Origin: a virus
Lineage: Duplodnaviria > Caudoviricetes
Reading direction: 5' to 3' (one strand)
IMG/VR virus record: IMGVR_UViG_2636415851_000001
Location: 8,418-72,417 of that record
DNA: 64,000 nucleotides
The position numbers and the translations under genes are program-made. Below the pieces are notes generated by a model. It did not search any database. It was given only the letters and a program-made list of their open reading frames with translations, and had not been told where the DNA came from. Below, piece by piece: positions 15,661 through 33,119 of this stretch (position 1 is the first letter of the stretch; each line of letters begins with the position of its first letter).

Positions 15661-15692
15661 GATGTTCTCCTTGGTGCCATGGGCGGCGGGTT

Positions 15693-16754
15693 TCAGGCGG
15701 CTTCCTTGCGGGCCTTCTCGTCGAGTAGCCCCGCATAGCGCTCGTGGATGCTGTCGACAGTGAGGTGGTGAGACGTGAAGCCGTAGATCTCGGTGACTTG
15801 ATTTCGGACGGAGGCGAGGATCTCTGCCTCATCATTCGTCAACATGCGGGTGGGCCAGCCCTTGACGTAGAGCATGGGCTTGGTGATCTGCCCTTCGATC
15901 TCCTTGCGCAGCGTGGCTCGATGCTTAGCCAGTTGCAGCGCCTCCCGTTCGTCGGAAGTCAGGAGGTGAGGAGCGACGTCGCCCAGCCAGCGTGACCCCT
16001 GAAATGCAAAGCCACTCTCGGACTCGAGGCGGACCATGCGGCGATAGAGCTCGTGGCTTTCCGGTACTGCCGTGGCAGCCGTGAGGTCGGCGATGTTCGA
16101 CATGATGCAGAAGCGGCAGGACACCCGCGTCATTCCGTGGACGCGGTACGCCGGGTGTGGAGTGAGGCCGGAGCGATCGATCATCCCGAAGACATCGTCG
16201 GTGGTGAGCTCGATGATCGGGCGCCACGTCCAGACCTGGCCGCCGGCATCGCTGTCGGCCACCGACATGCGGGCCCTGGCCGCGCTCTCTTCTCGGCGGA
16301 CGCCGATCACATTGAGGATCTTCTGTCCTTTGAACCTCGATTTCAGATCCGCCATGATGACGTGCGTCTTCAGTTCGGAGGTGCAGAATCGCATGGCCGG
16401 TGTGGACCAGCAGGGGACGAGGGTGACGGTGCTCAACGTCTCGTAGCGCGTCTTGCTCGACAGCCACCGGCTTTCCCAGCGCTCCATCAGGCCACCTGCC
16501 TTACGTCGGACGACAACGAGATCGCATTCGAGGTGGTCGGCCAGCTCTTGGCAGACGCGCAAGCTATCGTCCCACTCGACGGTGCCGAGATCCGCATGGA
16601 CCAGGATGCGCGGCCCCTTATGATCGAGGGCATTCAGGTAGTGGAAGGTGGCGATCGCTGCCGCCTGGCTGTCCTTACCGCCCGACACACCGATGGCGAC
16701 CGGTGCGTTCGAGGCAACGAGGGATACGATGTCGTCGGTGACCGAGACAGTCAT
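15693..16754 (-). CDS. phosphoadenosine phosphosulfate (PAPS) reductase family protein
   Basis: VSGGKDS PP-loop, RFCTSELK, GVRREESAAR, WRPI, HPAY, RVSCRFC. Confidence 0.9.
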   Translation of the reverse strand: MTVSVTDDIVSLVASNAPVAIGVSGGKDSQAAAIATFHYLNALDHKGPRILVHADLGTVEWDDSLRVCQELADHLECDLVVVRRKAGGLMERWESRWLSSKTRYETLSTVTLVPCWSTPAMRFCTSELKTHVIMADLKSRFKGQKILNVIGVRREESAARARMSVADSDAGGQVWTWRPIIELTTDDVFGMIDRSGLTPHPAYRVHGMTRVSCRFCIMSNIADLTAATAVPESHELYRRMVRLESESGFAFQGSRWLGDVAPHLLTSDEREALQLAKHRATLRKEIEGQITKPMLYVKGWPTRMLTNDEAEILASVRNQVTEIYGFTSHHLTVDSIHERYAGLLDEKARKEAA

Positions 16755-16810
16755 GGTGTTCTCCGTGTGCTCATAATTGAGGGGGTGGGGGAGGCGCTTT
16801 TGCGCCGCCC

Positions 16811-18025
16811 TTATTCTTCCTTCAGCTTTGCGACGACAGCGCGCATCTCTTCCATCGCGGCAATCCGCTCCGGGGTATAGGCGAGGGAGGTGACGACCTT
16901 CTCTGCTGCTTCGAGGAGGGCTACGTCACCTGCCTCGATCATGTCGGCCGCTTCCTCAATGTCGGTCGGGAAGTAGTGGCCGGCGGCATCGATCAGGCTG
17001 TGGCGAAGTATCCTCGCGTAGTGACGCAGGCAGTCGACGACGAAGGGGATCTTCACGCCATAGGCCTCGCGGGCAATGCCGGTAGGCGGACCACCCTCCC
17101 TCGATAGGGGTGATGGGTGGCACTGGCACCCGCTGACCGTGCCGGTTGAGCAGGCATCGCAGATGTAAGGCAGATCCACATTCGGCACGGGAGCGCTGGC
17201 GATTGCAGCCACCTTTGCAGCGCAATCGGCGCAGTAAACGGACCCAACGCCACCTGCTTCGAAGCGCTCGGTTGCGGGCTTCTCGCAGCCATCGCTCGCA
17301 CACATATGTGGAACGGGAGGTGGAGTGACGAGCGGCTTGATCGCCTCGATGATTGCGGCGATCGCTTCATGGTCGAGGTGCAGTCTCCCCTTGCCGGCCC
17401 ACCACAGATAGACGCCCTCATGGGGGGCGGTATGTTGCGTGGCCTGCTCCAGTTCGGCGACGAGCTGGCGGACCCAGCCCCGGCTCAAGGAGGATAATCC
17501 AGACCGGAATGATTGGGTTGCTGGGAGAGATGCTTCCAGGACGGCCCTGGCCTCATCGCGGAAGCGCGGCCTGTCATGGACGCTGCTCCATTCATCGCCG
17601 GCCAGCGCAATGGCGCCGGCTTCCACCGCCGCATCCGTGATGGTCGACCCCGACCCGGGGTGAGGGATGTTCGTGGTGACGAGACCGCCGTCCTTCGATG
17701 CGCCGTGAGTGACGACGCGAGCCGGATGGTAGCCGGTGCTGCTCCCGCCTCTCGCAGTGGAAGAAACGTCGTCCTCTTCAGCGTGAGGTTCCACCCGCAC
17801 CCCGACGGCAGGGTTGGGTGCGTTGCCGGACACCACTCGCTCGTGAGGGGTATTGGCATAGACTTCCACGGGCCCGGTGATGGGGATGAGGGGCACGCGA
17901 GAGGCAGCCATCTCGCAGTCCTGAAGGTACCGCTTATGGATCTGATCGTACCAGTACACCGAGGGCTCCTGGCCGTAGGCCTCGACCAGCGACATGAAGG
18001 TGCGCTGACGTGTATCGTCTGTCAT
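16811..18025 (-). CDS. hypothetical mosaic protein
   Basis: 404 aa with several short Cys clusters; AAGGAGA SD. Confidence 0.65.
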   Translation of the reverse strand: MTDDTRQRTFMSLVEAYGQEPSVYWYDQIHKRYLQDCEMAASRVPLIPITGPVEVYANTPHERVVSGNAPNPAVGVRVEPHAEEDDVSSTARGGSSTGYHPARVVTHGASKDGGLVTTNIPHPGSGSTITDAAVEAGAIALAGDEWSSVHDRPRFRDEARAVLEASLPATQSFRSGLSSLSRGWVRQLVAELEQATQHTAPHEGVYLWWAGKGRLHLDHEAIAAIIEAIKPLVTPPPVPHMCASDGCEKPATERFEAGGVGSVYCADCAAKVAAIASAPVPNVDLPYICDACSTGTVSGCQCHPSPLSREGGPPTGIAREAYGVKIPFVVDCLRHYARILRHSLIDAAGHYFPTDIEEAADMIEAGDVALLEAAEKVVTSLAYTPERIAAMEEMRAVVAKLKEE

Positions 18026-18065
18026 TTCAGTGTTCTCCTTGGTTCATGATTGAGGGTGGGGTGGG

Positions 18066-18320
18066 TCAACTTTCGGCGACACCGTCCAGCTTGCGAAAGA
18101 CGCTGCGGATGTCGCTTTCGAGATCGCCGTGCGGATCGTACCACTTGCCGTCGAGGCGGTCGCGGATCCGCTGCAGTGCTTCTGCCGCCTTGTTGACCGG
18201 GATGCCGTAGTGGATGCCGCACTCATGGCACTGCACTGCCACGACGAGGCCACGCGCCCCTCCCGTTGGGGAGCGGCGACGTTCGGCGCACGCATGGCAC
18301 TTCGGTTGATGTGTCATCAC
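18066..18320 (-). CDS. hypothetical Zn-binding protein
   Basis: CHAC...CHEC; AAGGAGA SD. Confidence 0.65.
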   Translation of the reverse strand: MMTHQPKCHACAERRRSPTGGARGLVVAVQCHECGIHYGIPVNKAAEALQRIRDRLDGKWYDPHGDLESDIRSVFRKLDGVAES

Positions 18321-18371
18321 CCGTCTCCTTTGTTGAACATTGCAGGAATGGAAAGGGGCGCCGCAGCGCCC

Positions 18372-19298: not shown

Positions 19299-20465
19299 TC
19301 ACACCCTCATCGGCATCAGCACATAGGTGATGCCCTCGAGCGCGCCGTCCTTGATGACCCCGGGTGAGCCGGCATCCTCGAGCTCCATCATTGTGCCGCC
19401 GTCCATCTGCCCGAGGATGTCGAGCAGGTAACCGGCATTGAATCCTACCTCGAGCTCGAAGTCGCAGGAGACGGGGATCTCCGTTGACGCGGTCCCGAAC
19501 TCTGGATCGCGGCAGGTGAGCATGAGGTGGCCGGGTCGGAAGGTGAGCTTCACCGCCTTGCCGCGCTCCGTCATGACGGCCGATGCCTGCTTCAGGGCGT
19601 CGATGAAGGGCGCCGTGTGGATGGACGGGCGGTTCTTGTTCGCCGTCGGCATGACCCGGCGGTAGTCGGGGAAGGTGCCGTCGATCTGCTTGGACTCGAG
19701 CAGTTCGTCCTCGCCGATCGCAAACGAGATGGCGCTGTCCGTCACCCGGATGAGCGTGTCCTCCGGGCAGCCCTTCCGCTTCAGCATGCGCAGCACCTCA
19801 CCGACCGTCTTTCGGGGGATGAGGACGCCCTTGCCCGGCATGGCGCCGGCCCCTGCGGGGACGTCCATCTCGTAGCAGCCGAGACGATGGCCGTCGGTGG
19901 TGACGAAGGTCAGCTTGTCGCGGATCTCGTTGATGTGCATGAAGACGCCGTTCAGGTAGTAGCGGGTCTCCTCCGTCGAGATGGCGAACTCGATCTTGGC
20001 GAGGATGGTGGCGAGCGTTGCCGACGGCAGCACGAAGGCGCAGTTCGACTGCTTCAGCTTCGCGCTGAAGCCGAGCTCGCTGACGAAGTTCTCCTCCTGG
20101 TGCGTCTGCTGCAGGGTGAGGTTGAGCTTGCCGATCGACGCGACAAGGCGGTCACCGTCCAGCACGAAGTTGATGTCGGCCGCATCCTTCACCTTGTCCA
20201 TCACCGCCTTCAGCTTGTGGGCATCGACGAGGGCAACGAAGTCGGACTCGACCTTGCCAGGCACGAAGGTGGTGGTGATCATGTCGCAGTCGGTGCCGGT
20301 GACCAGCGCCCCGTTGCGGGTCGCCTTGATCAGCATGGTCGACAGGATCGGGATCGTGTTGCGCTTGTCGATCACCTTGGTGGCGTTCAGCACGGCCTTC
20401 TTGAAAACCGAATAATCCAGTGATGCCGTCGATACGGTGGCGGCGATGTTCGCAATGGCGTTCAT
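19299..20465 (-). CDS. dnaN: DNA polymerase III beta sliding clamp
   Basis: RNTIPILS, FAISTEETRYYLNGVF, VTTDGHRL, IDGTFPDYRRV, VGFNAGYLLD, YVLMPMRV; start MNAIA at 20465 fits the SD. Confidence 0.95.
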   Translation of the reverse strand: MNAIANIAATVSTASLDYSVFKKAVLNATKVIDKRNTIPILSTMLIKATRNGALVTGTDCDMITTTFVPGKVESDFVALVDAHKLKAVMDKVKDAADINFVLDGDRLVASIGKLNLTLQQTHQEENFVSELGFSAKLKQSNCAFVLPSATLATILAKIEFAISTEETRYYLNGVFMHINEIRDKLTFVTTDGHRLGCYEMDVPAGAGAMPGKGVLIPRKTVGEVLRMLKRKGCPEDTLIRVTDSAISFAIGEDELLESKQIDGTFPDYRRVMPTANKNRPSIHTAPFIDALKQASAVMTERGKAVKLTFRPGHLMLTCRDPEFGTASTEIPVSCDFELEVGFNAGYLLDILGQMDGGTMMELEDAGSPGVIKDGALEGITYVLMPMRV

Positions 20466-20508
20466 GGGTCTCATCTCCTTGGGTCGCATGATTGCGGGGG
20501 TGGTCATG

Positions 20509-20534
20509 AAAAAAAGCCGGGCGCTTGGCCCGGC
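20509..20534 (-). terminator. intrinsic terminator upstream of dnaN
   Basis: - strand GCCGGGC-CAAGC-GCCCGGC followed by 7 T. Confidence 0.8.
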
Positions 20535-20541
20535 CTTTGGT

Positions 20542-20877
20542 TTAGGGGCGGACCCCTAAGTTTCGGAGGCGGTGCTTGTTGGCTGCCTCCATATCGGTGG
20601 CCTGCCGGCAGTAGCCGGAAGGGTTGGACTTGTGCCTCGCCACCTGGTGGAGCCGGCGCCCCTCCATCTCGCGGATGGTTTCCTGCCGTGACCAGCCGAG
20701 CCGCTTGCCTTCCGCCATGATGGCGTCGTTGATGGCGATCGGGTCGGCGGGGTAGCCGGGACATTCCATCGCCGTCACCCTCTGCTGGACGAGGAAGGCG
20801 AAGTCGGCGGTGTCGGCATAGGCTGAAGCCGGCATGGCTGCAGACAGGGCAAGCAGGGCAAGTCCAACGGTACGCAT
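20542..20877 (-). CDS. hypothetical secreted protein
   Basis: Signal peptide MRTVGLALLALSAAMPASAYA; AGGAGA SD. Confidence 0.7.
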   Translation of the reverse strand: MRTVGLALLALSAAMPASAYADTADFAFLVQQRVTAMECPGYPADPIAINDAIMAEGKRLGWSRQETIREMEGRRLHQVARHKSNPSGYCRQATDMEAANKHRLRNLGVRP

Positions 20878-20886
20878 GGAGGTCTC

Positions 20887-21066
20887 CTATGGCGGTGAAT
20901 GTTCAGCCGGATAGGAGAATGCCTCAACCTTCCCGAATTTCAACAGGGCGGAGTTGTGGTCCTTTAGGTGGCGGACGAACTCATCGGCCACTGCCGTGGT
21001 TGCGAGGCCGGGGTTGTCCGCCTGGATGGTCAGCTTGAGCTTGACCTCGACGATGTAGGTACGCAT
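20887..21066 (-). CDS. hypothetical protein
   Basis: MRTYIVEVKLKLTIQA; TGATG coupling to the upstream gene. Confidence 0.6.
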   Translation of the reverse strand: MRTYIVEVKLKLTIQADNPGLATTAVADEFVRHLKDHNSALLKFGKVEAFSYPAEHSPP

Positions 21067-21779
21067 CACGCAGCCCAATCGGACCGGGGCGTGAGGTTGT
21101 ACTTCTCGCCGAGCCACTTGACGAACTCGGCGGGATCCTCGTCCTGCTCCATGGCCTGCGTCACCCGCTCGGCATGGTCCGTGACCAGGTCGCCATAGCC
21201 CCACTGCTTTTCGGCTTCGGCACGGCATGCGGCAATGTAGTCGTCGGGACCGGGGCCCACCTTTTTGAAGTTGCGGCGCATGGGGTCGCTGTTGCGGGAC
21301 CGATCGGCAGCGATCATGGCGACAATGAAGGGTTTCAGGTCCGGGTCATACCGCCCTTTATCGAATTGGTTGTCATTGCAGAGGGCATCCCAATCCAGCT
21401 TGGCACAGATGCTCGGCACGAACTCGAAGTCGTAGGCGCCAATGAAGTCAAAGCCCATGGCCTCCATCAGCTTCCATGCGCGGTCGCAGATGTCGCCAGC
21501 CTGGATGGAAATCATCCGCATGCCGGGGCTGCCGACCCCGTCAAACCAGTCGTCGATGTCCTTGTTGGTAGCCCTCGAGTCCAGCATCCACTCGTAGACG
21601 CAGAGCGCTCCTTCAACCTGGGCGTAGGTGTAGGTGCGGCGGTTGGCGAAGCGCTCGGGCTCCGGCTTGGTCAGGATTACCTCGGCAAAATGCACCAGGG
21701 TGTCGTCGTCGTAGCCAGACTCGTGCTCGGCAACGATCTTCTGGACAAGGTTCAGGAGGGTTTCACGATCGATGGTCAT
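21066..21779 (-). CDS. hypothetical protein
   Basis: 237 aa ORF with SD and upstream hairpin motif. Confidence 0.75.
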   Translation of the reverse strand: MTIDRETLLNLVQKIVAEHESGYDDDTLVHFAEVILTKPEPERFANRRTYTYAQVEGALCVYEWMLDSRATNKDIDDWFDGVGSPGMRMISIQAGDICDRAWKLMEAMGFDFIGAYDFEFVPSICAKLDWDALCNDNQFDKGRYDPDLKPFIVAMIAADRSRNSDPMRRNFKKVGPGPDDYIAACRAEAEKQWGYGDLVTDHAERVTQAMEQDEDPAEFVKWLGEKYNLTPRSDWAA

Positions 21780-21821
21780 GTCTCTTCCTTTCGCATGGGT
21801 GCGGGGTGTTTCAGGGGGCGC

Positions 21822-22082
21822 TTACGGGCGCCCCTTGATGATGCTGTAGGCAGTGGCCTCCGCTACGGCGCGCGGGTCGATGCGGTCGGGCGAGAACGGC
21901 GTCCAGTAATCTTGCGATGCCGGGCGACTCATGGGGTGAACCTCATGCCGGAAGAACAACCGCTTGAGCGGGTCGAATGAAACATAGATCCCCGCGGGGC
22001 GGACGTTTGGCCTGAGAACGAGCTGCCCGTCCTTCCTGACATTCCAATAGTTCAAGTCGAGCTCCAAGGTTGGGTCAGCCAT
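21822..22082 (-). CDS. hypothetical protein
   Basis: MADPTLELDLNYWNVR; overlaps the upstream stop. Confidence 0.55.
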   Translation of the reverse strand: MADPTLELDLNYWNVRKDGQLVLRPNVRPAGIYVSFDPLKRLFFRHEVHPMSRPASQDYWTPFSPDRIDPRAVAEATAYSIIKGRP

Positions 22083-22856: not shown

Positions 22857-22891
22857 GATTGTTCTCCTGCGTGCCATGGTTGGCTGGTGTT

Positions 22892-23209: not shown

Positions 23210-23210
23210 G

Positions 23211-23447: not shown

Positions 23448-23448
23448 G

Positions 23449-25983: not shown

Positions 25984-27007
25984 TGATCACGTCCTGATTT
26001 TCGGCAGACCAGTTGATGAAGGCCTGCGTGTGGGACAGGCCCGGGTCACGGCGCACCGCATCGACCATGAACATGATGCGGAAGTCGCGCGCCGGCAGCC
26101 GCTTCATGTAGGCGTCGGCATTGGCCAGCGTCCGCTGGTCGACCTTGCGTGCCAGACCTGCGGCGATGGCGAAGCGGGCCGAGACATCCTCCGGCAGCGG
26201 TGCGCTGTTCGGGTTGGCGAGCACCAGGTCGAGCGACGGCAGCCCCTGATAGACACGGACGAAGCCCTCGAACTCTGCCGCTGCACCATCGCCGACGATT
26301 CCGCTGACCAGAGAATAGCGGCGGCTGGTCTTCCTCTCCTTGTCTGCCTGCTCGCTCGGCTTGATGTACTTGAATGCCTCCTCCCATGCCCGGGGCGTCG
26401 GGAAGGCGCGCTGGTCTGGCGTGTCCGGCATCTTGTGGATCAGCTCCGGACGGAAGCGCAGGAAGGCGATGCCGATCGGGTCGACGCCCTTCTTGCTGAA
26501 GTGCATGAGGTGGACGTTGTCGTGGTTCGGGCTGAGGTCCGGATCCACATCGATGTGAGCGAAGCGGTTGGCGAGCGCCGTCGGCATGCGCTGTGCTGCG
26601 GCACGGTCCGACTGGCGGTTACCGGCTGCCACCACACGCCAGCCAGGCGGCAGGGTATAGTCGCCAACCTTGCGATCGAGAACCAGGCCGAACATGGCGG
26701 CCATCATCGAGGGAGGCGCGGCGTTCAACTCGTCGAGGAAGAGGATGCCTTCCTCGCCATCGCGCTCCACCTGCGGGAACTCGTCCGGCACCTTCCACTT
26801 AGTAGTGTCGCCGTGCAGATCCGGCAGACCCATGAGGGCGACCGAGTCACGGGTGGATGCGCGGAAGTCAACCAGTCCCCACTTGCGTTCCTTGGTAATC
26901 TGCGCCGTGGCCTGGGACTTGCCGATGCCGGGCGGTCCCCACAGGAAAGCCGGTGTGTTGCCGTCGAGATAATCCTGAAGGTTCAGAACAGCTGTGCCGA
27001 TGTGCAT
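25976..27007 (-). CDS. MoxR/CobS-like AAA+ ATPase
   Basis: GPPGIGKS Walker A, ILFLDELN Walker B, VVAAGNR sensor 1, ALANRF arginine finger, FPTPRAW. Confidence 0.92.
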   Translation of the reverse strand: MHIGTAVLNLQDYLDGNTPAFLWGPPGIGKSQATAQITKERKWGLVDFRASTRDSVALMGLPDLHGDTTKWKVPDEFPQVERDGEEGILFLDELNAAPPSMMAAMFGLVLDRKVGDYTLPPGWRVVAAGNRQSDRAAAQRMPTALANRFAHIDVDPDLSPNHDNVHLMHFSKKGVDPIGIAFLRFRPELIHKMPDTPDQRAFPTPRAWEEAFKYIKPSEQADKERKTSRRYSLVSGIVGDGAAAEFEGFVRVYQGLPSLDLVLANPNSAPLPEDVSARFAIAAGLARKVDQRTLANADAYMKRLPARDFRIMFMVDAVRRDPGLSHTQAFINWSAENQDVIIG

Positions 27008-27390
27008 GTCTTGTCTCCTTGGTGTGCCATGCGTGGCGGGGTTGGTAGCTGGCCGAGTAGCCGCACCCTTGTGAGGTCGGCGAAGTCGGCAGGGGAAAGC
27101 AACGTCTGCGCTGCAAGAGCGAGCTTGTCCCGGGGGAAGCGGGGAAAAGCGAGGTTCGGATATTCGTCGAAATTGGACGGTATCAGGTAGTCGTTGAAGT
27201 TGCTGGAGTGGGTGGGCACCCGACCGGGATAGACCGGACGGTGACGTGCCTTGACCCGCTTCTCGAAAGTGTCGACGTGCACCTCGTAGCGGTGGGTGAG
27301 GCCGGTCTCTTCCTCGTCAAAGGCGAACCAGAACTTCAGCTTGGTGCCGGTGATCTGCCGGGCGTAGGGACCGTAGAGCGCGCCCTTCAT
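26983..27390 (-). CDS. hypothetical protein, paralog family member 4 (divergent)
   Basis: YEVHVDTFEKRVKA and LLSPADFADLTRVRLL motifs. Confidence 0.6.
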   Translation of the reverse strand: MKGALYGPYARQITGTKLKFWFAFDEEETGLTHRYEVHVDTFEKRVKARHRPVYPGRVPTHSSNFNDYLIPSNFDEYPNLAFPRFPRDKLALAAQTLLSPADFADLTRVRLLGQLPTPPRMAHQGDKTCTSAQLF

Positions 27391-27393
27391 GGG

Positions 27394-27759
27394 TCACGTC
27401 CAGACGATGCGGTCAGGGAAGAGAACGACCGGGCCGGAGATGGCCGGGATGGACTCAGGATCAAGCCCGGGCTCGCGGGTCAGCGCATTGTTGCGGTAGA
27501 TCGCGGTGCCCCTGATGTTGCGGATGTGTCGACCGTTGATGCTCGACGTCTCGCCGACGAACATATCCCTACGGTTGCCCTCAAAGAGCACGGCCACATG
27601 CTCGAAAGGCTCGTCGAAAACTCCGGCCATCGCGCGCTTCAGCGCCTCGTAATTGGAGGACTTGCCGGCGATGGTGACGAGCCGTTCCTCGGTTGCGCCG
27701 AGCACCGGGATGATGAGCATTCGAGTTTGCGGAGGAGGCGGCTGTGTCAGCTTGCCCAT
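27394..27759 (-). CDS. hypothetical protein (DUF3846-like)
   Basis: MGKLTQ start; EHV..L....DMFVGE.....N..GTAIY...ISGPVVLF pattern. Confidence 0.65.
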   Translation of the reverse strand: MGKLTQPPPPQTRMLIIPVLGATEERLVTIAGKSSNYEALKRAMAGVFDEPFEHVAVLFEGNRRDMFVGETSSINGRHIRNIRGTAIYRNNALTREPGLDPESIPAISGPVVLFPDRIVWT

Positions 27760-27797
27760 TTCATTCTCCTGTCGTGCATGATTGCTGGGGTGAAAGT

Positions 27798-28196
27798 TTA
27801 GGGGATGGCGAGGTAGCCGGGGCCGTAGCACTGGCGGCATTCCAGCCTATCGAAATCGTAGCCGCGAGCAGCTGCACGATAGAGCATCATCAGCTGGCCC
27901 TCTCGCTGCCTAGTGCGGCGTAGCCGGCTGTTGATGGTCGGCTTGGCGTCTAGCTCATCGAGCGCGAACGTGCGGCCGCAAGCGTCGCAGCAAGCAGTCT
28001 CGACTATCTCGCACCCGCAAGTGATGCAGCGGTCGCCTCCGTCCATGGCAGTCTCGCCACAGTTTTCGCAGGACCACTCATCCTCGTCATCTTCATCGCC
28101 AAGGATGGGGTGCTCGTCACACTTGGGGTCTTGGACGAACTCGCGACCACGGAAAAAACATCCGCAACTGAGTGTCACGATGGAGGGGGAGGGCAT
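27798..28196 (-). CDS. hypothetical Cys-rich Zn-finger protein
   Basis: CENC, CITC, CDAC, CRQC; start MPSPS after AGGAGA. Confidence 0.7.
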   Translation of the reverse strand: MPSPSIVTLSCGCFFRGREFVQDPKCDEHPILGDEDDEDEWSCENCGETAMDGGDRCITCGCEIVETACCDACGRTFALDELDAKPTINSRLRRTRQREGQLMMLYRAAARGYDFDRLECRQCYGPGYLAIP

Positions 28197-28365
28197 GTCG
28201 TTCTCCTGTGGTGCATGATTGCGAGAGAAAGGGGACGCCACCTGGATGATGAGCGCCCCCCTCGTGTGTGCGGCGGAATAAGGGATTACTTCATGTCGAC
28301 CTCCGTTCGCTGTTGGTCCTCAGGGTGAAACCCTGCCCGGCAGTGCGGGCCAGGCAGGATTGGGA

Positions 28366-29274
28366 TCAGGCGAGGAAGCCGGAGACGGTGTCGAGGATCG
28401 ACTGTGCCTCGGCGGCCACGTCGCGGCGCTTGCCCTCGTCTTCGCGAAGGACGGACGCATCGTATTCGGCCAGCGGTTTCAGCTGCTCGGCCATGGCGGC
28501 GAGCTTCGGGTCGCCGGTGATGTTGAGGGCGGGCAGGATCTTGATCAGGTCGCGGACGTTCTCGACCAGCGAGTCCCGGAAGATGCCCTCGGCCTTGTCG
28601 CCCTTGCCCTTGGCGGGCTTGTAGGCATTCAGCCGTTCGACCATGCGGCCGGCGACGTCGGCGACGCGCTTGTAGACGTCCTGCACGGCGGCGGTGGTCG
28701 CCTTGGTCAGCTGCTCCTCGATGTCGGCGCGGATGATGGATGCTTGCGCCTCGCTCATGTCGACGCGGAAGTCGGAGGAGGAGGGGACCGGCATCACCTT
28801 GCAGTCGAGCGAGAACTTGGCGCGCAGCGTGTCGACGTCCGGGTAATCCTCGTCCTTGAACATGCCATTGAGGCGGACTCGAGCATCATTCACATAGCCC
28901 GGATACTTGGCGAGGAAGTCGTTGACCGCGTCATCGAACTTCACCTTCTGCTGGCGGATCCAGCCCATGTGGGCGAGGTAGGCCTCGGCTGCCATGATGC
29001 GGCTGCCGTTGTCCATCCACGGCAGGGTGCGCGTGAGGAAGTCGGTGCGCGTGGCGCTGACGATCTTGACGATCGGCTCGAGCGCTTCCTTGGGCAGGAG
29101 CAGCTTATTGTAGCGTCCGGCGTCGGCCGCGGCGTTGTGCTGCTGGTTCACCTCGTCGGTGATCTCGCGGTCGAGGCGGCGGCCGGACCATTGCGAGATG
29201 GACAGGCTCACCAGCATTGCCCGGGTGGACAGGGAAGCGGTGGCGGCGGGTGCAATGGGAGTCATAGCGTTCAT
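28366..29274 (-). CDS. DUF3150-like protein (often found with MoxR/vWA genes)
   Basis: MLVSLSISQWSGRRLD...GRYNKLLL...TLPW...YPD...LRAKF; start MNAMTP at 29274. Confidence 0.7.
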   Translation of the reverse strand: MNAMTPIAPAATASLSTRAMLVSLSISQWSGRRLDREITDEVNQQHNAAADAGRYNKLLLPKEALEPIVKIVSATRTDFLTRTLPWMDNGSRIMAAEAYLAHMGWIRQQKVKFDDAVNDFLAKYPGYVNDARVRLNGMFKDEDYPDVDTLRAKFSLDCKVMPVPSSSDFRVDMSEAQASIIRADIEEQLTKATTAAVQDVYKRVADVAGRMVERLNAYKPAKGKGDKAEGIFRDSLVENVRDLIKILPALNITGDPKLAAMAEQLKPLAEYDASVLREDEGKRRDVAAEAQSILDTVSGFLA

Positions 29275-29321
29275 GTCAGTCTCCGTTGGGTGCCATGATT
29301 GGCGGGGTGAAGTCGGTAGAG

Positions 29322-29468
29322 TCAGGCGGGGCGTAGCAGCTCCGCAATCAGGACGGTGATGGCCGCGCCGATGAGGAGGTCGACGTACTCGAGTCCCATG
29401 CGGCGAAGCGCGAGAGCTGCGACACATTCCGCAAGCGCGATGAACAGGATCAGGGGTCTCAGCTTCAT
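29322..29468 (-). CDS. small membrane protein
   Basis: MKLRPLILFIALAEC...LLIGAAITVLIAELL; two hydrophobic segments. Confidence 0.55.
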   Translation of the reverse strand: MKLRPLILFIALAECVAALALRRMGLEYVDLLIGAAITVLIAELLRPA

Positions 29469-29524
29469 AGGGTTTCCTTCTGGATGCGAGGGCGATCCTA
29501 CACGCACGGATGCGTGGGGAGAAG

Positions 29525-29821
29525 TCAGGCAACAAGCGAGGCGCGGGTTGCCCTTGCGATCTCCTCCGGCGGGAGGAGGGATACGAGGAAGTCTACCAGC
29601 TTGTGCGGAAGCGGAACCTCGTGGTCGAAGGACGCCTCGTTATCGTCCGCGCGATAGAGCGTGGCGTAGAAAGTCCGGTGCTGGACGTCGTAGGAAAGCC
29701 GCCACCAACGGCGCATGCCCTTGGGCTTGGAGTCGTAGACGGTCCAGTCGATGTAGGCGTCAGGAGCGAGGTTGTCCGGGGTGATATTGCCAAACAGGTG
29801 GCGGAGGCGGTCCGGGTTCAT
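29525..29821 (-). CDS. hypothetical protein, paralog family member 5
   Basis: WRLSYDVQHRTFYA and LLPPEEIARATRASL motifs. Confidence 0.7.
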   Translation of the reverse strand: MNPDRLRHLFGNITPDNLAPDAYIDWTVYDSKPKGMRRWWRLSYDVQHRTFYATLYRADDNEASFDHEVPLPHKLVDFLVSLLPPEEIARATRASLVA

Positions 29822-30630
29822 CCGACGATCTCCCCTTCCTCGTCGAAGGTGTAGTCGGCGAGGGCTTCGTCGACCGCCTCATTGGACATGAGGTATTCGT
29901 CCTCCTGCCGGAGCTGCTCATAGATCCAGTCCATGAAGGCGCGGAGGGTGGCCTTGACCTCGGATTCAAACTCAAGGCGGAGGAGGCGGTGCTTTACGAG
30001 CATAGCTCTCCATACCATGGCCTGCAGTCCGCTAAAGTCGCGGTCATCGTCGTCGCGATAGACCTCGATGCGAGTGCAGCCTGAGTGGTAGTAGCTGCCG
30101 GAGTGCTCGACGTGCACGGATAGATCCGGGATGAGCCCCAGGCATCGCTCGGAGAAGTCGGCCAGGTCCAGCGCGATCTCGTGCAATTTCGTGTCGAGCG
30201 GGGCGTGCTCCATGACGGCGGTCAGGGAGCCGATAGGATCCTTGACCGGGTACCAGTTGCCCTCGAAGCACGCGCCATCCCCTTGGCAGGAAAAGCCGGA
30301 GAACCAGATCTGCGGACCGCTGATGATGGCACCGCTGGCAAGCGTGTGGTGCTTGCGCTTGATCTGGATGCCCATCATGGCGGCGATGGTGTCGGCGTCT
30401 TCATAGATCGAGTCCCACCAGTCGTAGTCGATGCCCGTGGCGCGATAGTCGTCGCGCGCCTTTTCCTTGGCGCGGTCGGACAGTCCGTCGAAGGAAAACT
30501 CGGTCTGCTCGTCCTCGACGTCGCCCATCTCGGGCACAAGCGCGAGGGCAGGCTGGTTGACGTAGACGGGGGCACCTCCCGCAATGGCGCGGTTGACGGC
30601 GCGGGTGAGTGCTGCGCGTGCGGCGTTCAT
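29818..30630 (-). CDS. conserved phage/plasmid protein (family often labelled antitoxin-like)
   Basis: YDWWDSIYED, IWFSGFSCQGDGACFEG, YYHS, WIYEQL..E.EYL; start MNAARA at 30630. Confidence 0.7.
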   Translation of the reverse strand: MNAARAALTRAVNRAIAGGAPVYVNQPALALVPEMGDVEDEQTEFSFDGLSDRAKEKARDDYRATGIDYDWWDSIYEDADTIAAMMGIQIKRKHHTLASGAIISGPQIWFSGFSCQGDGACFEGNWYPVKDPIGSLTAVMEHAPLDTKLHEIALDLADFSERCLGLIPDLSVHVEHSGSYYHSGCTRIEVYRDDDDRDFSGLQAMVWRAMLVKHRLLRLEFESEVKATLRAFMDWIYEQLRQEDEYLMSNEAVDEALADYTFDEEGEIVG

Positions 30631-30631
30631 G

Positions 30632-30889
30632 TCAGTCTCCCTGAATTGCGAGGGCTTCGTCGCCGAGCTGGTTGTAGAGGGCGTCGATGATGGCGAAGCG
30701 GCTGCGATAGACGGCCAGGTCGCGCTGGTATGCGTCAGGCTCGCCGATGTAGTCGCGGCCATTGGGTGCCGTCTCGCCGAGCGAGGTCATGACGGAGCGA
30801 AGATCCTGCCGGACGGCAATGCGCGCCTCCACGAGGGCGTCGCGGCTGGTGCCGTTGAGGTTGACGATCGGGCGCATGAGGTCAGCCAT
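30632..30889 (-). CDS. hypothetical protein
   Basis: MADLMRPIVNLNGTS...APNGRDY. Confidence 0.65.
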   Translation of the reverse strand: MADLMRPIVNLNGTSRDALVEARIAVRQDLRSVMTSLGETAPNGRDYIGEPDAYQRDLAVYRSRFAIIDALYNQLGDEALAIQGD

Positions 30890-31028
30890 TGCGTGCCTCC
30901 CTGAGGATGCGGAATACCTCGTCGCGAGCTTCAGCGCTGGTGGGCTCGCGGCCAAGGCGTGCGGCCAGCTTGTTCCAGATCGTGTCCGGGTTGTCGTTGC
31001 GGACGGTGACGGTGACAGTGACGGCCAT
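30882..31028 (-). CDS. small hypothetical protein
   Basis: MAVTVTVTVRNDNPDTIWNKLAARLGREPT; TGATG coupling. Confidence 0.65.
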   Translation of the reverse strand: MAVTVTVTVRNDNPDTIWNKLAARLGREPTSAEARDEVFRILREARNG

Positions 31029-31186
31029 CAGCCCATCCTCCGGTTGAGTTCCTCGCGGGCAACCGCGGCGTACTCGTCGCGTCCGGCAATGGTTTCGCGG
31101 CGGATGATCTCGGAAAGCTGCGCGGTGGTCGCGTTGCGGCAGAAAGCGGCGAAGTCGTCGCGGTCTGATTTCGAGGGCGTGGTCAT
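31028..31186 (-). CDS. small hypothetical protein (52 aa, not in the ORF track)
   Basis: MTTPSKSDRDDFAAFCRNATTAQLSEIIRRE...; AAGGAGA SD and hairpin motif upstream. Confidence 0.7.
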   Translation of the reverse strand: MTTPSKSDRDDFAAFCRNATTAQLSEIIRRETIAGRDEYAAVAREELNRRMG

Positions 31187-31347
31187 GGTCTCTCCTTGTG
31201 CATGATTGCGGGAAGGGGTTGCGCGTCCGGGTGCGAGGGCTGGAACGGATCGCGCTATAGGTCCAGCCGGTGGTATTGGTGCGGGGCTTTAGGTTCCCCG
31301 CGCATGGCGGATCTCCGTGCGAGGTGGATCGGGGCGGTGGATTACGG

Positions 31348-31527
31348 CTAGACCCGCGCGGCGGCTTCGAGGACGCGCAGATATTCCGCCCAACGATAGG
31401 CGGCCACCCACATGGCGAGGATGAGCGCGACGATTGCGACGCTCCAGACGAAGCCGGAGTCAAGCAGGTCGGACATGCGCGGCCTCACGATGGGCTCGAC
31501 GCGGATGGTGCGGCGGCGCGGCTTCAC
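31348..31527 (-). CDS. small membrane protein
   Basis: GTG start overlapping the upstream stop; FVWSVAIVALILAMWVAAY transmembrane helix. Confidence 0.55.
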   Translation of the reverse strand: MKPRRRTIRVEPIVRPRMSDLLDSGFVWSVAIVALILAMWVAAYRWAEYLRVLEAAARV

Positions 31528-31715
31528 GGGCGCACCTCGACATGGCCGCCGCCATAGGCGAGCAGCTTTGCGGTCGAGATGGCGCGCTTGCGGCTGGCGA
31601 ATGTGTCCAGCGTCGAGGCAAGGCCGCCGGGCAGCATCACCGCCAAGCACCAGCGATTGCCGGTGCGGCGGCGACGGCGCGCGACCACGTAGGTGTAGGG
31701 GATGGGCTTTTTCAC
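31524..31715 (-). CDS. hypothetical basic protein
   Basis: GTG start after AGGAGA and hairpin motif. Confidence 0.65.
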   Translation of the reverse strand: MKKPIPYTYVVARRRRRTGNRWCLAVMLPGGLASTLDTFASRKRAISTAKLLAYGGGHVEVRP

Positions 31716-31757
31716 GGGGATCTCCTCAGGTTCGCATGATTGCGGGGGTGGTGACGG

Positions 31758-32171
31758 CTACTCGTGCCACGGGCGGCCGGTGCAAGCCTCGATGTTGCCA
31801 TCGGTGGGCAGCAGGTCCGCAAGCGGGCAAGCGGGGACGAGGTCGACGTCGATCGGGGCGATAGCCTGGCACTGCGGGAACTCGTCCTCGTGCAGGCGGT
31901 AGATCTCGCCTTGCTGGCCTTGGCAGCCGATGCCGATCAGGACGGTGTCCGGATAGGCGAGCGCGGGAGAGGGCAGCAGGAGCGCAAGCGCTCCCGCATA
32001 CTGCACGAAGCGGATGGCAGCGCCCGGCACGGTGCGGTGGATCTGGCGAACCGGGCGCTGCCCGACCGGCCGATAGCTCGACGATACGCAGAACGAGAAC
32101 GTCAGGCGGCCGATTTTCAGGAAGCGGATGCCGCCCACCCTCATGGTGGACACGTTGAGGAACCGGATCAA
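31758..32171 (-). CDS. hypothetical protein
   Basis: TTG start after GGAGG; 4-nt overlap with the upstream gene. Confidence 0.55.
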   Translation of the reverse strand: MIRFLNVSTMRVGGIRFLKIGRLTFSFCVSSSYRPVGQRPVRQIHRTVPGAAIRFVQYAGALALLLPSPALAYPDTVLIGIGCQGQQGEIYRLHEDEFPQCQAIAPIDVDLVPACPLADLLPTDGNIEACTGRPWHE

Positions 32172-32356
32172 TGGACTGCCTCCAGAATGCGAGCGCGGGA
32201 TAGGCGAGCGCGGAAGGCGTCGTCACGAAGGATCATAGCCCCCACCTCGTCGCGGAAAGCATCGGCCTGTTCGTCGCGATGCGTCGCGAAATACGGATGG
32301 CGGAACGGTGGTGGTGCGTCCGGGCGAAGGACGGACTCCGGCCTTTGCGGTCTCAT
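32168..32356 (-). CDS. hypothetical protein
   Basis: AAGGAGA SD and hairpin motif. Confidence 0.65.
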   Translation of the reverse strand: MRPQRPESVLRPDAPPPFRHPYFATHRDEQADAFRDEVGAMILRDDAFRARLSRARILEAVH

Positions 32357-32443
32357 TGCAGGTCTCCTTGTGTCGCATAGTTGCGGGTTCCGGCGCGTTG
32401 CCGCGTCAAGGCCAGTGCCTGGCCCTCACGTAGGAACGCGCAA

Positions 32444-32467
32444 AGGTGGGGAACCATGTCCCCACCT
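32444..32467 (-). terminator. strong hairpin, possible weak terminator after the first early gene
   Basis: AGGTGGGGA-N6-TCCCCACCT with only a short T run. Confidence 0.45.
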
Positions 32468-32498
32468 CCGGCGGTCATCTTATGAGCCGCAGATGCTT

Positions 32499-33032
32499 TC
32501 AGGCGGCCTTCTGGATCTCCTCCGTCTTGGCGGCCGGTGCGGCCTTCGGAGCCTTGGCAGGTGCAGCGACGATCGGAGTCTTCGCCAGCGTCAAGGCGCC
32601 CTTGACAGCCTGCAGAACGCGCGGCGAACCGCCATTCTCCTCCAGTTTCTTGACGACGGACTCGAGGTACTTGACCTCGTCGAATGCAGCCGCTGGCTTG
32701 CCCTTCGTGGCCTTTTCGTAGTTCGCCGGTGCGATTTCCATCGCTTGCGCCATGTCGGATTTCTTGCCCTTGGCAAACTCGAAAACGCGCGCCTTGTCGT
32801 CAAACTTGACCTTGCCGAAAGCGGTCGACCACGAAACCAGTCCGCGGCGATAGTTCGCCGGAGTGACAGCGTAAAGCGCGTTCAGGTACTTCGGATCATT
32901 GTGCAGCTCGACATGGTTCAATGCCGAATAGGCCAGCTGGTGCTCCTTTTCCGTGAACGTCGCGGCGGCCTTCACAAAGCCCTTGATTGCGTTGTTGAGC
33001 TTGGAACCGGTGAGAACAACAAACTTGGTCAT
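32499..33032 (-). CDS. hypothetical Lys/Ala-rich protein, first gene of the early region
   Basis: Start MTKFVVLTGSKL at 33032 after GGAGA and hairpin motif. Confidence 0.75.
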   Translation of the reverse strand: MTKFVVLTGSKLNNAIKGFVKAAATFTEKEHQLAYSALNHVELHNDPKYLNALYAVTPANYRRGLVSWSTAFGKVKFDDKARVFEFAKGKKSDMAQAMEIAPANYEKATKGKPAAAFDEVKYLESVVKKLEENGGSPRVLQAVKGALTLAKTPIVAAPAKAPKAAPAAKTEEIQKAA

Positions 33033-33119
33033 GATCTTAATCTCCATCGTTGGCATGATTGCCGGGTTAGTGCCGTTTGCACCTGAAAAGCCAAAAGAGG
33101 CTTTGCAGCTGGAAACGTG

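Follow-up and report, generated by a model that had tools for sequence, protein, structure and literature searches.

In cluster A mycobacteriophages, repressor bound at stoperators blocks elongation, and phage phiC31 has conserved inverted repeats. One report describes Aca2 as binding 5'-UTR hairpins and stopping ribosome binding, and also reports RNA motifs between the genes of anti-defence operons (PMC13551039). In phage T4, according to another report, RegB cleaves GGAG in early-gene intergenic regions, with strong sites reading GG*AGRAYARAA (PMC3014915).

The 64-kb window (the whole stretch of DNA that was analysed) belongs to a temperate phage of root-associated bacteria and contains fifteen mini-hairpins, all on the minus strand and each ahead of a gene start, which were all located where a first-pass annotation had placed them. 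Each hairpin is part of a bipartite tag composed of a hairpin block and an SD block. In the 5' block, CCC leads into a hairpin of 3-4 bp, (N)NCR-NNNA-UGN(N), which is followed by one unpaired A, while the 3' block is a near-invariant GGAGA, 4-7 nt past the hairpin block and 6-9 nt ahead of the start codon; the conserved block measures 35-40 nt. The shared layout described earlier, from C-rich tract through NNCA/G-NNNA-TGNN, A/C spacer and SD to start codon, was recovered in 14 of 15 copies, the exception being the copy at 28212-28223, which has TCTCTC in place of the C-tract. As first read, all 15 window copies have an MNYA loop; an A-U pair closes 14 of them and a G-U pair one. The features are listed below, with scores from covariance model R1, which was built from the 15 window copies and scanned with filters off.

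33634-33650, minus strand: boxA-like GGTTCTTTGAAAACAAG in the operon leader, with a GC hairpin ahead of it; this 12-mer occurs once in the genome
33120-33148, minus strand: hairpin resembling a terminator, GGCCACC..GGTGGCC TTTT, some 55 nt upstream of copy 1
33030-33067, minus strand: copy 1, CCC-GGCA-ATCA-TGCC-A..GGAGA..ATG, hairpin 33052-33063, 32.0 bits, heading the first operon gene (177 aa, 32499-33032)
32354-32389, minus strand: copy 2, CGCA-ACTA-TGCG, hairpin 32374-32385, 29.8 bits, before a 62-aa ORF (32168-32356)
31713-31748, minus strand: copy 3, CGCA-ATCA-TGCG, hairpin 31733-31744, 34.4 bits, before a 63-aa ORF (31524-31715) with a GTG start
31184-31214, minus strand: copy 4, (C)GCA-ATCA-TGC-A, 3-bp stem, hairpin 31199-31210, 31.1 bits, before a 52-aa ORF (31028-31186)
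29272-29307, minus strand: copy 5, GCCA-ATCA-TGGC, hairpin 29292-29303, 35.3 bits, before a DUF3150-like gene (28366-29274)
28194-28227, minus strand: copy 6, (C)GCA-ATCA-TGC-A, hairpin 28212-28223, 32.9 bits, before a 132-aa gene (27798-28196)
27757-27790, minus strand: copy 7, (A)GCA-ATCA-TGC-A, hairpin 27775-27786, 34.9 bits, before a 121-aa gene (27394-27759)
27005-27041, minus strand: copy 8, GCCA-CGCA-TGGC, hairpin 27026-27037, 30.6 bits, before a MoxR-type AAA gene (25976-27007) and lying in the 3'-terminal part of the preceding ORF (26983-27390)
24872-24903, minus strand: degenerate remnant before a VWA-metallopeptidase gene, 10.4 bits; C-tract, CAATCA and, immediately after, AGGAGA, with the 3' arm absent
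23665-23699, minus strand: copy 9, GCCA-CCTA-TGGC, hairpin 23684-23695, 31.3 bits, before a 72-aa gene (23449-23667)
22854-22888, minus strand: copy 10, GCCA-ACCA-TGGC, hairpin 22873-22884, 32.3 bits, before a 159-aa gene (22377-22856)
21777-21807, minus strand: copy 11, CGCA-CCCA-TGCG, hairpin 21792-21803, 30.4 bits, before a 237-aa gene (21066-21779)
20516-20534, minus strand: intrinsic-terminator-like hairpin with a T7 run that stops some 12 nt short of copy 12
20463-20500, minus strand: copy 12, CGCA-ATCA-TGCG, hairpin 20485-20496, 38.6 bits, before phage dnaN (19299-20465)
18023-18058, minus strand: copy 13, (C)TCA-ATCA-TGA(A), hairpin 18043-18054, 30.8 bits, before a 404-aa gene (16811-18025)
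16752-16785, minus strand: copy 14, CTCA-ATTA-TGAG, hairpin 16770-16781, 35.1 bits, before a PAPS-reductase-like gene (15693-16754)
15658-15691, minus strand: copy 15, GCCG-CCCA-TGGC, G.U closing pair, hairpin 15676-15687, 33.6 bits, before a DUF4942 gene (14104-15660)
7384-7420, plus strand: weak extra copy, CCCC-GGCG-AGAA-TGCC-A..AAGGAGA..ATG, 16.2 bits, before an 82-aa ORF (7418-7666), with an RMF-like gene (6888-7364) just upstream

Model R1 separates the tag sharply from other sequence, giving the 15 copies 29.8-38.6 bits; the next match in the window is the weak plus-strand copy (7378-7415, 16.2 bits), and the remainder reach at most 11 bits. Elsewhere in the 4.58-Mb genome, a single further match exceeds 20 bits (21.9 bits, C1:1347522-1347559, minus strand), and it adjoins the prophage integrase within the same prophage. 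The loose core CCNNCRNNNATGNNM is enriched in the window (28 occurrences vs 12.0 +/- 3.5 in shuffles). Among 150 other genomes of the same family, three have matches at E<=1e-4, clustered 4, 2 and 1, and no Rfam family matches the tag, in line with the original suggestion of an undescribed motif.

The claim that stem sequence changes while pairing is kept proved correct. In the window, pair 12-21 is GC in eight copies, CG in five and UA in two (15/15 paired), and pair 11-22 is GC in six, CG in five and unpaired in four; 93.3% of cells are paired vs 69.7 +/- 4.1 in shuffles, a level reached by 0 of 500 shuffles, and slid registers give 13-33%. In 92 copies from relatives, retrieved with a model that rewards pairing, pair 12-21 is GC in 62, CG in 27 and UA in three (92/92 paired), pair 11-22 is CG in 33, GC in 32, UA in seven and other in 19, and again 0 of 500 shuffles match the pairing level; a regex without a pairing requirement found Watson-Crick pairs at the covarying position in 105 of 112. 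Orthologous sites exchange entire stems (GCCA/TGGC, CGCA/TGCG, CTCA/TGAG, TGCA/TGCA). Because about 90% of copies use just four stem types and copies exchange through recombination, independent compensatory events are far fewer than copies. No G.U intermediates were seen at the two covarying pairs, in either the window or the relatives' copies.

This covariation upholds the view that a single-stranded structure, not a dsDNA half-site, is under selection, and it bears on the proposal that the tags form an operator array at which a prophage repressor blocks elongation, as at cluster A mycobacteriophage stoperators or the phiC31 inverted repeats. Many copies lying in short gaps, their single orientation to transcription, the temperate phage, the 12-bp near-palindrome and the precedent of stoperators, mentioned in PMC3203893, would suit such an array. 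However, a homodimer tolerating G or C per half-site predicts mixed sites, of which there are none (0 in 92/92 and 15/15); moreover, the flanks (CCC vs A) and the loop are asymmetric, the SD distance is fixed and the late operon has no copies. An operator array is thus very improbable.

All 82 matches in nine loci are in gene-strand orientation. The 5' closing base (n=78) is A in 67, G in 10 and C in one, opposite an invariant U, and because A or G fills this position in 77 of 78, the evidence tilts toward the sense strand and, hence, mRNA. Wobble pairs had been reported on both strands, but the outer C.A 'pair' is explained by a stem of 3 bp with the conserved A after it, and the disappearance of this supposed antisense wobble tilts the case further toward RNA. 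The link to ribosome-binding sites was borne out: the hairpin end lies 4-7 nt from GGAG in 85 of 89 copies (sd 1.05), while its distance to the start codon has an sd of 1.81. An A follows GGAG in 79 of 84 tagged genes vs 115 of 328 untagged genes; it would face C in what we take to be the 16S tail. Judging from its frames relative to the true start (32/35/38), the hairpin AUG is not a start codon. Farther upstream, no information was detected beyond position -5, which argues against a two-block promoter.

Could the host 30S subunit alone read the A/C-rich leader, a platform-docking hairpin and GGAGA, so that the tag would give strong, upstream-independent initiation with no phage factor? The G-poor spacer (G 3%), the strong SD at fixed spacing, the fact that most cistrons beginning after a gap are tagged and none that overlap their neighbour by 1-4 nt, and the failure to find a binder are all compatible with such a cis-only enhancer. 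It is nonetheless improbable, as it leaves unexplained why host genes do not use the tag, why these phages lack it in their replication, recombination and late operons, and what keeps the loop A/UG and the A behind GGAG invariant. Furthermore, breaking the 3' arm of the stem leaves predicted SD accessibility unchanged (0.45 intact vs 0.43). The stem itself is weak (mean MFE -2.57 kcal/mol, median formation probability 0.62).

At least ten related Rhizobiales proviruses, from Ensifer, Rhizobium, Ancylobacter and Peteryoungia, carry 4-17 copies each (whole records at E<=0.01: G001 15, G002 13, G003 15, G004 7, G005 4; at E<=0.001: G156 12, G157 17, G158 13, G159 12, G160 8). The tags precede the same orthologous genes with swapped stems: DUF4942 9/9, AAA 9/9, DUF3150-like 9/9, the 177-aa first operon gene 7/7, and dnaN 8/8 by eye or 7/8 by a stricter script; VWA-metallopeptidase orthologues keep the full tag in 3/9. 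None precedes terminase (0/8), head (0/8), portal (0/7), sheath (0/7), DnaB (0/9) or RecT (0/7) genes. The earlier statement that replication and late operons lack copies therefore stands for the late operon but is a little too strong for the replication side, where five relatives have strong copies in the position of the weak plus-strand copy, beside their RMF-like gene. This distribution supports a single regulon of non-structural genes.

In the window, the tagged region is one leftward accessory operon of about 19 kb, with MoxR/VWA/DUF3150-like genes, dnaN, DUF4942 methylase-like and PAPS-reductase-like genes and many small ORFs. Because a boxA-like leader occurs in 5/7 records examined, the window's own included, and a terminator-like hairpin precedes copy 1, the operon is probably made as a single antiterminated transcript. 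Hairpins resembling the latter occupy the same place in G001, G003, G004 and G158 (GC-rich stems, T runs of 3-4). Copies 1 and 12 each have a strong terminator directly upstream, an arrangement that would suit a restart signal as well.

A transcription-level signal might be a compact restart promoter used with a phage factor, or an ops/nut-like element, in which the nascent RNA or the non-template strand forms a pause or antitermination-loading signal. Both terminators, the same terminator-tag-dnaN order in G003 (with T-rich tracts before dnaN in G157/G158) and the operon's clear requirement for antitermination point in this direction, as does a weak Atlas lead (score 0.91) linking a 231-aa core protein with DUF6456/GafA-like clusters, 12% of whose members have the domain. 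Pfam did not confirm DUF6456 in any of eight orthologues at E<=0.1, and about 60 prophage proteins compared with Pfam yielded no RNA-binding, RNase, RNA polymerase, sigma or NusG family above threshold. Nor is there a conserved upstream block; a T run lies within 40 nt upstream in just 12 of 105 copies, spacing is locked to the SD, a closing G.U would turn into a C.A mismatch if formed on the template strand, and 14 of 50 copies are contained in the 3'-terminal part of an upstream ORF. Such a signal is unlikely, and nut and hairpin-promoter alternatives are disfavoured.

Tag copies coincide with junctions of cassette gain and loss. In DNA contigs of a relative of about 95% identity, the 437-nt unit separating copies 6 and 7 is precisely absent (27756->28194), the entire copy 4 cassette (31028-31220) is swapped for other sequence, and replaced segments have their joints at 18082, 21809, 29288 and 31220, no more than about 30 nt from a hairpin in each case. 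With RecT and a PDDEXK exonuclease encoded by the prophage, the blocks could be recombination linkers that promote cassette exchange between phages, any regulation being secondary or nil. That idea fails on stem covariation and the invariant loop A/UG because recombination needs identity, not base pairing; phage gene boundaries are generally mosaic joints, so the coincidence is partly trivial, and the probability of this explanation is slight indeed.

The search for a reader bears on the remaining rival, in which an endoribonuclease, from either phage or host, cleaves at or beside the tag (at the C-tract or, like T4 RegB, at GGAGA), leaving monocistronic mRNAs with a protective 5' hairpin or early mRNAs inactivated at the SD. 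The tag occupies intercistronic gaps of about 30-80 nt, as RegB sites lie between early genes, its GGAGA is near-invariant, and a weak hairpin would become 5'-proximal upon C-tract cleavage. However, RegB works without an upstream hairpin, and the protein scans turned up no RegB, RelE, YoeB or other RNase family. C-rich tracts are also poor RNase E sites. Thirty protein scans with PHROGs and NCBIfam, many of them repeating proteins already covered, likewise gave no RNA-binding or RNase candidate, and the 177-aa product has no PDB structural neighbour at E below 1. Processing is fairly unlikely, and the first-pass interpretation is supported in its structure, ribosome-binding-site link and regulon, although not by a candidate reader family.

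The sense-strand orientation, R-U closing pair, tight SD spacing, lack of upstream conservation, weak stem (about -2.6 kcal/mol) and conserved boxA-like leader with internal terminators together favour a bipartite mRNA signal, specific to this phage lineage, placed at translation-initiation regions and read by a trans-acting factor; we give this reading about even probability. Because the stem lacks the stability to act thermodynamically and leaves the SD unmasked, it is most likely a docking site, preserved by compensating changes, whose candidate reader would probably be a phage protein. From a position 4-7 nt ahead of the SD, on the side of the ribosome platform, the bound factor could act as a common switch for the translation (or mRNA survival) of every tagged cistron. 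By analogy, we would favour repression over activation, either for lysogen silencing or for shut-off after the early phase. As a side effect, the 35-40 nt blocks would serve as homology patches where cassettes come and go.

The tag thus looks like an undescribed shared mRNA control signal. Its suggested likeness to the MS2 coat-protein operator holds for the loop alone, and membership of that family was rejected, as the tag lacks a bulged A, about 20 nt separate it from the start codon and no coat-protein homologue was found; it is likewise not a member of the nut or N4 families. Among described elements, the nearest counterpart is the SAS/ESAS of cluster K mycobacteriophages, which has no known function, and the best mechanistic precedent is the action of Aca2 on 5'-UTR hairpins.

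The tag that precedes fifteen genes of the leftward operon in this prophage is a real, conserved, phage-specific and start-associated element of RNA type. All fifteen hairpins that the first-pass annotation had described between 15676 and 33063 were recovered on the minus strand, in position and in the context reported for them, and their alignment is ungapped. Against the covariance model that was built from them (R1), the copies reach 29.8-38.6 bits, a match by construction, while with filters off the next-best match in the window reaches 16.2 bits and the remainder 11 bits or less. Across the whole genome, the single further match above 20 bits (21.9 bits) lies before a 75-aa ORF adjoining the integrase of the same prophage. 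The weight of the R1 scores is the gap that separates the copies from the rest of the genome, not the scores themselves. Rfam 15, in which an already described motif would remove the novelty of the tag, gave no match at the gathering score in the whole window and none at E<=1 in 14000-34700.

The anatomy of the tag was drawn from 105 non-redundant copies. The 5' block reads C/A, C, C, C, its final two C being present in 101/105 copies, the stem-loop has the form (N)N-C-R / N-N-N-A / U-G-N(N), and an unpaired A follows the hairpin in 74 of the 82 copies with a 4-bp stem. Between the hairpin and the Shine-Dalgarno (SD) site lies a spacer rich in A and C (G 3%), with GGAG 4-7 nt past the hairpin in 85/89 copies and the start codon 5-11 nt further. 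The tag alignment holds no conserved sequence upstream of position -5 and, thus, no upstream promoter block. The AUG of the hairpin is located 16-26 nt upstream of the true start, and its use as a start codon or uORF was rejected from its frames relative to that start (32/35/38) and from the 33/105 copies in which it runs more than 17 codons out of frame. A further hairpin at 29470-29500 (minus strand), CGCA-TCCG-TGCG, which is without the loop A and the C-tract and precedes a doubtful 48-aa ORF (29322-29468), may be a decayed copy.

The prophage resides in a 4.58-Mb genome of 62% GC, where the window corresponds to G000:C1:1354406-1418405, and its plus-strand late genes are of the contractile-tailed phage type (large terminase, portal, head-protease fusion, sheath and tape measure). 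Other features are as follows, L115 being a second coordinate handle on the same prophage.

7 kb left of the window: integrase
0.3-13.5 kb: RecT/exonuclease operon and DnaB/primase operon
8059-8631, plus strand: MT-A70 gene
14-33 kb, minus strand: leftward accessory gene block (the operon)
14104-16754, minus strand: DUF4942 gene and adjoining PAPS-reductase-like gene
33634-33650, minus strand: boxA-like word GGTTCTTTGAAAACAAG in the operon leader, with a GC hairpin just upstream at about 33651-33690
L115:14935-17286, minus strand: 783-aa C5 methylase gene

The 14-33 kb block contains DUF4942, PAPS-reductase-like, dnaN homologue, MoxR-type AAA, VWA-metallopeptidase and DUF3150-like genes, along with many small ORFs that belong to no family. 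The DUF3150-like, AAA and VWA genes form a trio (23699-29274, minus strand) accompanied by several small paralogous ORFs (25250-25857), and this trio is found in 9/9 tag-bearing records, including four reached via the motif alone; relatives of its ATPase are annotated as N4 gp24-like. Methylase-type genes on this one prophage include the MT-A70 gene, the C5 methylase gene and the DUF4942 gene, the last from what we take to be a methylase-associated family. Megablast of 20000-32000 against a phage collection revealed no close isolated phage, and tblastn of the AAA protein against phages gave a best identity of 34%, with matches that include N4 gp24-like ATPases.

Relatives were reached by two routes. 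A search with the AAA protein (gene at 25976-27007) retrieved nine viral contigs, with identities of 61-76%, as well as four Rhizobiales genomes (Ensifer, Rhizobium, Ancylobacter and Peteryoungia), and in nine loci, two of which overlap one another, R1 gave 82 matches, every one of them on the gene strand. A 15-mer taken from the window and matched exactly led to four more proviruses with 12-17 copies each; its scan of viral contigs returned 59 stretches, of which nine were omitted as belonging to records already covered, and covariance model matches occurred at 7 of the 50 loci scanned, the other 43 being chance occurrences. Whole-record copy counts were 15, 13, 15, 7 and 4 in one set of tag-bearing records (G001-G005) and 12, 17, 13, 12 and 8 in another (G156-G160). 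Among 150 other genomes of the host's family, three had matches at E<=1e-4, in clusters of 4, 2 and 1.

The stem sequence was originally said to vary with pairing kept, and this was borne out: the variable position is paired in 15/15 window copies and 92/92 copies from relatives, by three pair types. In the window, the second stem pair is GC in eight copies, CG in five and UA in two, the outer pair is GC in six, CG in five and unpaired in four, and the inner pairs are C-G in 15/15 and A-U in 14 with one G-U. Paired cells amount to 93.3%, compared to 69.7 +/- 4.1 after shuffling (0/500 shuffles reach the observed value) and 13-33% in slid registers. Among relatives' copies (n=92, the window's own left out), the variable pair is GC in 62, CG in 27 and UA in 3, and the outer pair CG in 33, GC in 32, UA in 7 and other in 19. 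These 92 copies were picked by a pairing-aware model; with a regular expression that does not demand pairing, the variable position is still paired in 105/112. Stems differ between orthologous sites, those ahead of the AAA gene being one example (GCCG/TGGC, CGCA/TGCG, GCCA/TGGC and CCCA/TGGA). Because about 90% of copies belong to four stem types and copies recombine, independent compensatory events must be far fewer than copies.

The covariation bears on which molecule is read. If the tag were a duplex operator, a homodimer reading its half-sites independently would be expected to leave mixed arms, yet the arms covary and mixed arms were never seen, which makes this explanation highly improbable. 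The earlier suggestion of wobble pairs on both strands did not survive: 20 copies seem to have a C.A 'pair' at the outer position, but their next base is C, not A, and their spacer is 1.7 nt shorter, so that they are 3-bp stems followed by the conserved A, and the antisense wobble is gone. When the closing position was left free, its 5' base was A in 67, G in 10 and C in 1 of 78 copies, opposite an invariant U, and an R-U closing pair is possible on the sense strand only. Pairing in trans with an antisense RNA is disfavored because the stem covaries. An antisense mirror copy was also rejected, as opposite-strand matches to the model in the window score 16.2 bits or less, the best of them (16.2 bits) being the sense copy of a plus-strand gene.

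The tag is also tied to the SD. An A follows GGAG in 79/84 tagged genes versus 115/328 untagged genes of the same nine records, and because this A would presumably face a C in the usual 16S tail, it appears to be kept for a reason besides SD pairing. The tag occupies a position where the 30S platform presumably receives structured mRNA elements. Conserved positions unable to pair with 16S rRNA were likewise noted for SAS, a start-associated repeat of mycobacteriophages (PMC3203893). The predicted stem is weak, with a mean MFE of -2.57 kcal/mol and a median forming probability of 0.62. A role of the hairpin in masking or unmasking the SD was rejected, predicted SD accessibility being 0.45 with the stem and 0.43 with the stem broken. 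An enhancer acting in cis only is considered very unlikely.

Tagging follows gene family across the nine records.

Table. Gene families across nine records, given as records in which the family is tagged / records with the family.
DUF4942: 9/9
AAA: 9/9
DUF3150-like: 9/9
dnaN: 7/8
First operon gene (p177): 7/7
VWA: 3/9
Terminase: 0/8
Head: 0/8
Portal: 0/7
Sheath: 0/7
Tape measure: 0/7
DnaB: 0/9
Primase: 0/7
RecT: 0/7

Within the operon, a tag is found in most gaps of 31-76 nt and in none of the places where genes overlap by 1-4 nt, and in 14/50 copies it lies inside the 3' end of the upstream ORF. The initial impression that replication and late operons are free of copies holds for the late families and for DnaB, primase and RecT, but goes a little too far for the replication-side module, where a recurrent extra-operon copy precedes the small gene directly downstream of an RMF-like gene in the window and five relatives. 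The window version (7378-7415) is weak, at 16.2 bits.

Tags coincide with the gain and loss of cassettes. In a ~95% relative, represented by soil metagenome contigs that are probably DNA, precisely the 437-nt unit separating copies 6 and 7 is missing (27756->28194), and at four more places (18082, 21809, 29288 and 31220) a replacement or skip joint has its end no more than about 30 nt from a hairpin. Whole-cassette changes in this relative were observed at 27756-28194, 16909-18082, 21809-22072, 31028-31220 and 24892-25635, several with ends at or beside tags. These joints are what a recombination linker would predict, but such a linker leaves the covariation unexplained; it is, therefore, treated as extremely improbable as the function of the tag, and the cassette-boundary role as a by-product.

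The operon is probably transcribed as a single long RNA by way of antitermination. The boxA-like leader word presumably resembles rrn boxA, and the leader hairpin and GGTTCTTTGAAAACAAG are kept in 5/7 records examined, the window's own included, one of these five reading GGCTCTTTGAAAA. A terminator-like hairpin lies directly ahead of the first tag and a strong terminator ahead of the dnaN tag, and the boxA-like leader suggests Nus-type processive antitermination of a 19-kb operon with internal terminators. In the host, simple patterns run over the 700 nt ahead of each of the three 16S genes turned up no boxA-like word. Although terminators precede some tags, a T run occurs within 40 nt upstream in 12/105 copies only, and a transcription-level signal at the tag itself appears quite unlikely. 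The operon strand also holds, some 1 kb ahead of its first gene, a pyrimidine tract with four UCUCC repeats (34071-34112, minus strand), which is complementary to the invariant GGAGA and might act as a rut site or as an anti-SD RNA. Similar tracts occur 0.83-1.7 kb upstream in 6/7 records, the window's included, four of them with at least one UCUCC; the whole host genome has only five tracts of this kind.

With its weak covarying hairpin, its unpaired bases that do not vary and its constant spacing from the SD, the tag has the look of a protein-binding operator, and we assign an about even chance to its being an mRNA operator read in trans. A site for RNA processing or stability would also be read as RNA and is judged unlikely. 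A Pfam scan of about 60 proteins found no RNA polymerase, sigma, NusG, RNase or RNA-binding families. The product of the first operon gene, p177 (32499-33032, minus strand), gained no support as the binder: Pfam, PHROGs and NCBIfam were uninformative and its Atlas neighbors are viral hypotheticals. Its AF2 model (pLDDT 73), predicted to be helical with a small hairpin of strands, has no PDB neighbor at E below 1, and the protein bears a Lys/Ala/Pro-rich C-terminal tail of histone-H1 type. The RMF-like protein (6888-7364, plus strand) is a core protein of 158 aa whose C-terminal part resembles Pfam RMF; 6/6 orthologues match PF04957, all below the cut-off (best E 3.6e-6), NCBIfam and PDB sequence searches gave no RMF support, and its AF2 model (pLDDT 50) was too poor for structure search. 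A 231-aa protein with a poly-Gly linker and basic tail (12803-13498, plus strand) is present in 9/9 records; its candidacy as a GafA/DUF6456-like factor is a weak Atlas lead, to clusters of which a part carries DUF6456 (the GafA family of GTA activators), and drew no support from Pfam, which matched 0/8 orthologues at E<=0.1.

A bolder version of the operator reading, which we regard as quite improbable, is that the tag is an address label of a phage translation code, in which a phage factor at the 30S platform/anti-SD helix would read the hairpin together with the non-pairing A of GGAGA. One candidate reader would be the conserved RMF-like protein, whose downstream neighbor is tagged in the window (weakly) and five relatives. 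Tagged accessory and counter-defense cistrons might then be translated or silenced as a block, apart from host mRNAs. In a variant, the upstream CU-rich tract (3-4 UCUCC repeats) would be transcribed and titrate GGAGA sites.

The tag family presents a start-associated repeat puzzle in genetically tractable alpha-proteobacteria, and it offers a clearer handle than SAS/ESAS: a minimal covarying hairpin with ~10 informative positions, locked to GGAGA, in at least ten proviruses. If the operator reading is true, the tag defines a posttranscriptional regulon of those accessory genes with the highest likelihood of being toxic or counter-defensive, including the MoxR/VWA module, methylase-like and PAPS-reductase-like enzymes, the sliding clamp and many small ORFs. 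It could serve as a compact, portable control part, and because it marks cassette boundaries, it aids the reading of phage mosaicism and the annotation of start codons of small ORFs.

No description of the motif came up in word searches of open-access text, so that, as far as this literature was searched, the tag is undescribed; its mechanism we infer. The tag resembles the MS2-type operator in being a small hairpin with an ANYA-like tetraloop, most commonly AUCA or AUUA, and an AUG in its 3' arm. The MS2-type operator carries, on the 5' side of its stem, a bulged A that lies two pairs beneath the ANYA loop, and it encloses the start codon of the repressed gene. The likeness drawn in the first-pass annotation stands in part: loop position 1 is A and position 3 is Y in about 75/112 copies (the first base is C in 22), but the tag has no bulge and its hairpin excludes the start. 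Pfam found no Leviviricetes coat-protein homologue among 60 proteins scanned, and the tag phage, unlike MS2, is a dsDNA temperate phage.

Two other proposed identities are disfavored on anatomy. In lambda nut sites, present once or twice per genome and served by an N-like protein, boxA is followed by a boxB hairpin with a 5-bp stem and a GNRA-like pentaloop. The tag has 4-nt NNNA loops, 3-4 bp stems, no boxA beside the copies and at least 15 copies; the boxA-like element is present once, separately, in the operon leader. N4 hairpin promoters, used by the virion RNA polymerase, have 5-7 bp stems and 3-nt loops on the template strand, where the G.U closing pair of the tag would be a C.A mismatch; no RNA polymerase family and no non-structural protein longer than 783 aa was found here.

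T4 early mRNAs are controlled by RegA together with RegB. They provide a looser parallel, that of a class of early cistrons marked at the initiation region, and RegB targets GGAG plus a purine in intergenic regions of early genes (PMC3014915); the T4 sites lack the covarying upstream hairpin seen here. No RegA or RegB homologue was found among the prophage proteins scanned. In cluster A mycobacteriophages, the stoperators (mentioned in PMC3203893) resemble the tag in that a temperate phage has many of them, all oriented, in its short intergenic gaps. They are asymmetric duplex sites of 13 bp with no pairing constraint, located in both genome arms and not locked to the SD, whereas the arms of the tag covary.

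The best mechanistic precedent is provided by the Aca2/Aca1 5'-UTR hairpins of anti-CRISPR operons, which are likewise short conserved hairpins by the ribosome-binding site of phage early/counter-defense operons, serve a phage-encoded regulator that binds them and keeps the ribosome off, and are also reported between adjacent operon genes (PMC13551039). They differ in sequence and structure and number one to a few per locus versus at least 15 here. The Aca2-type regulator is an HTH autoregulator from the same operon, and it binds promoter DNA as well as the 5'-UTR hairpin. A Pfam scan of the operon proteins found no Aca-like HTH gene in or beside the operon; a 112-aa HTH protein at 6539-6877, outside it, is not among the families present in at least 6/9 records.

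The closest described phenomenon is SAS/ESAS of cluster K mycobacteriophages, start-associated repeats described in 2011 (PMC3203893) whose functional role still needed experimental verification as of 2025 (PMC12699233); it is of the same kind but another family. SAS/ESAS, with 11-19 copies per temperate phage genome, is similar to the tag in copy number, and both are confined to the non-structural half, in one orientation and before the same gene families in relatives, and are missing from the host genome. Both lie a few nucleotides before starts and combine an SD core with flanking positions unable to pair with 16S rRNA. SAS is a 13-bp sequence, GGGATAGGAGCCC, located 3-7 bp from the start with at most two mismatches, in contrast to CCC-hairpin-A-N(3-6)-GGAGA here, and the host phylum differs. 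ESAS, an inverted repeat of 17 bp, departs from its consensus in ways that lend no support to pairing in RNA, and those who described it preferred DNA binding (PMC3203893), whereas the tag has a covarying 3-4 bp stem and, unlike SAS/ESAS as described there, carries its upstream module in every copy.
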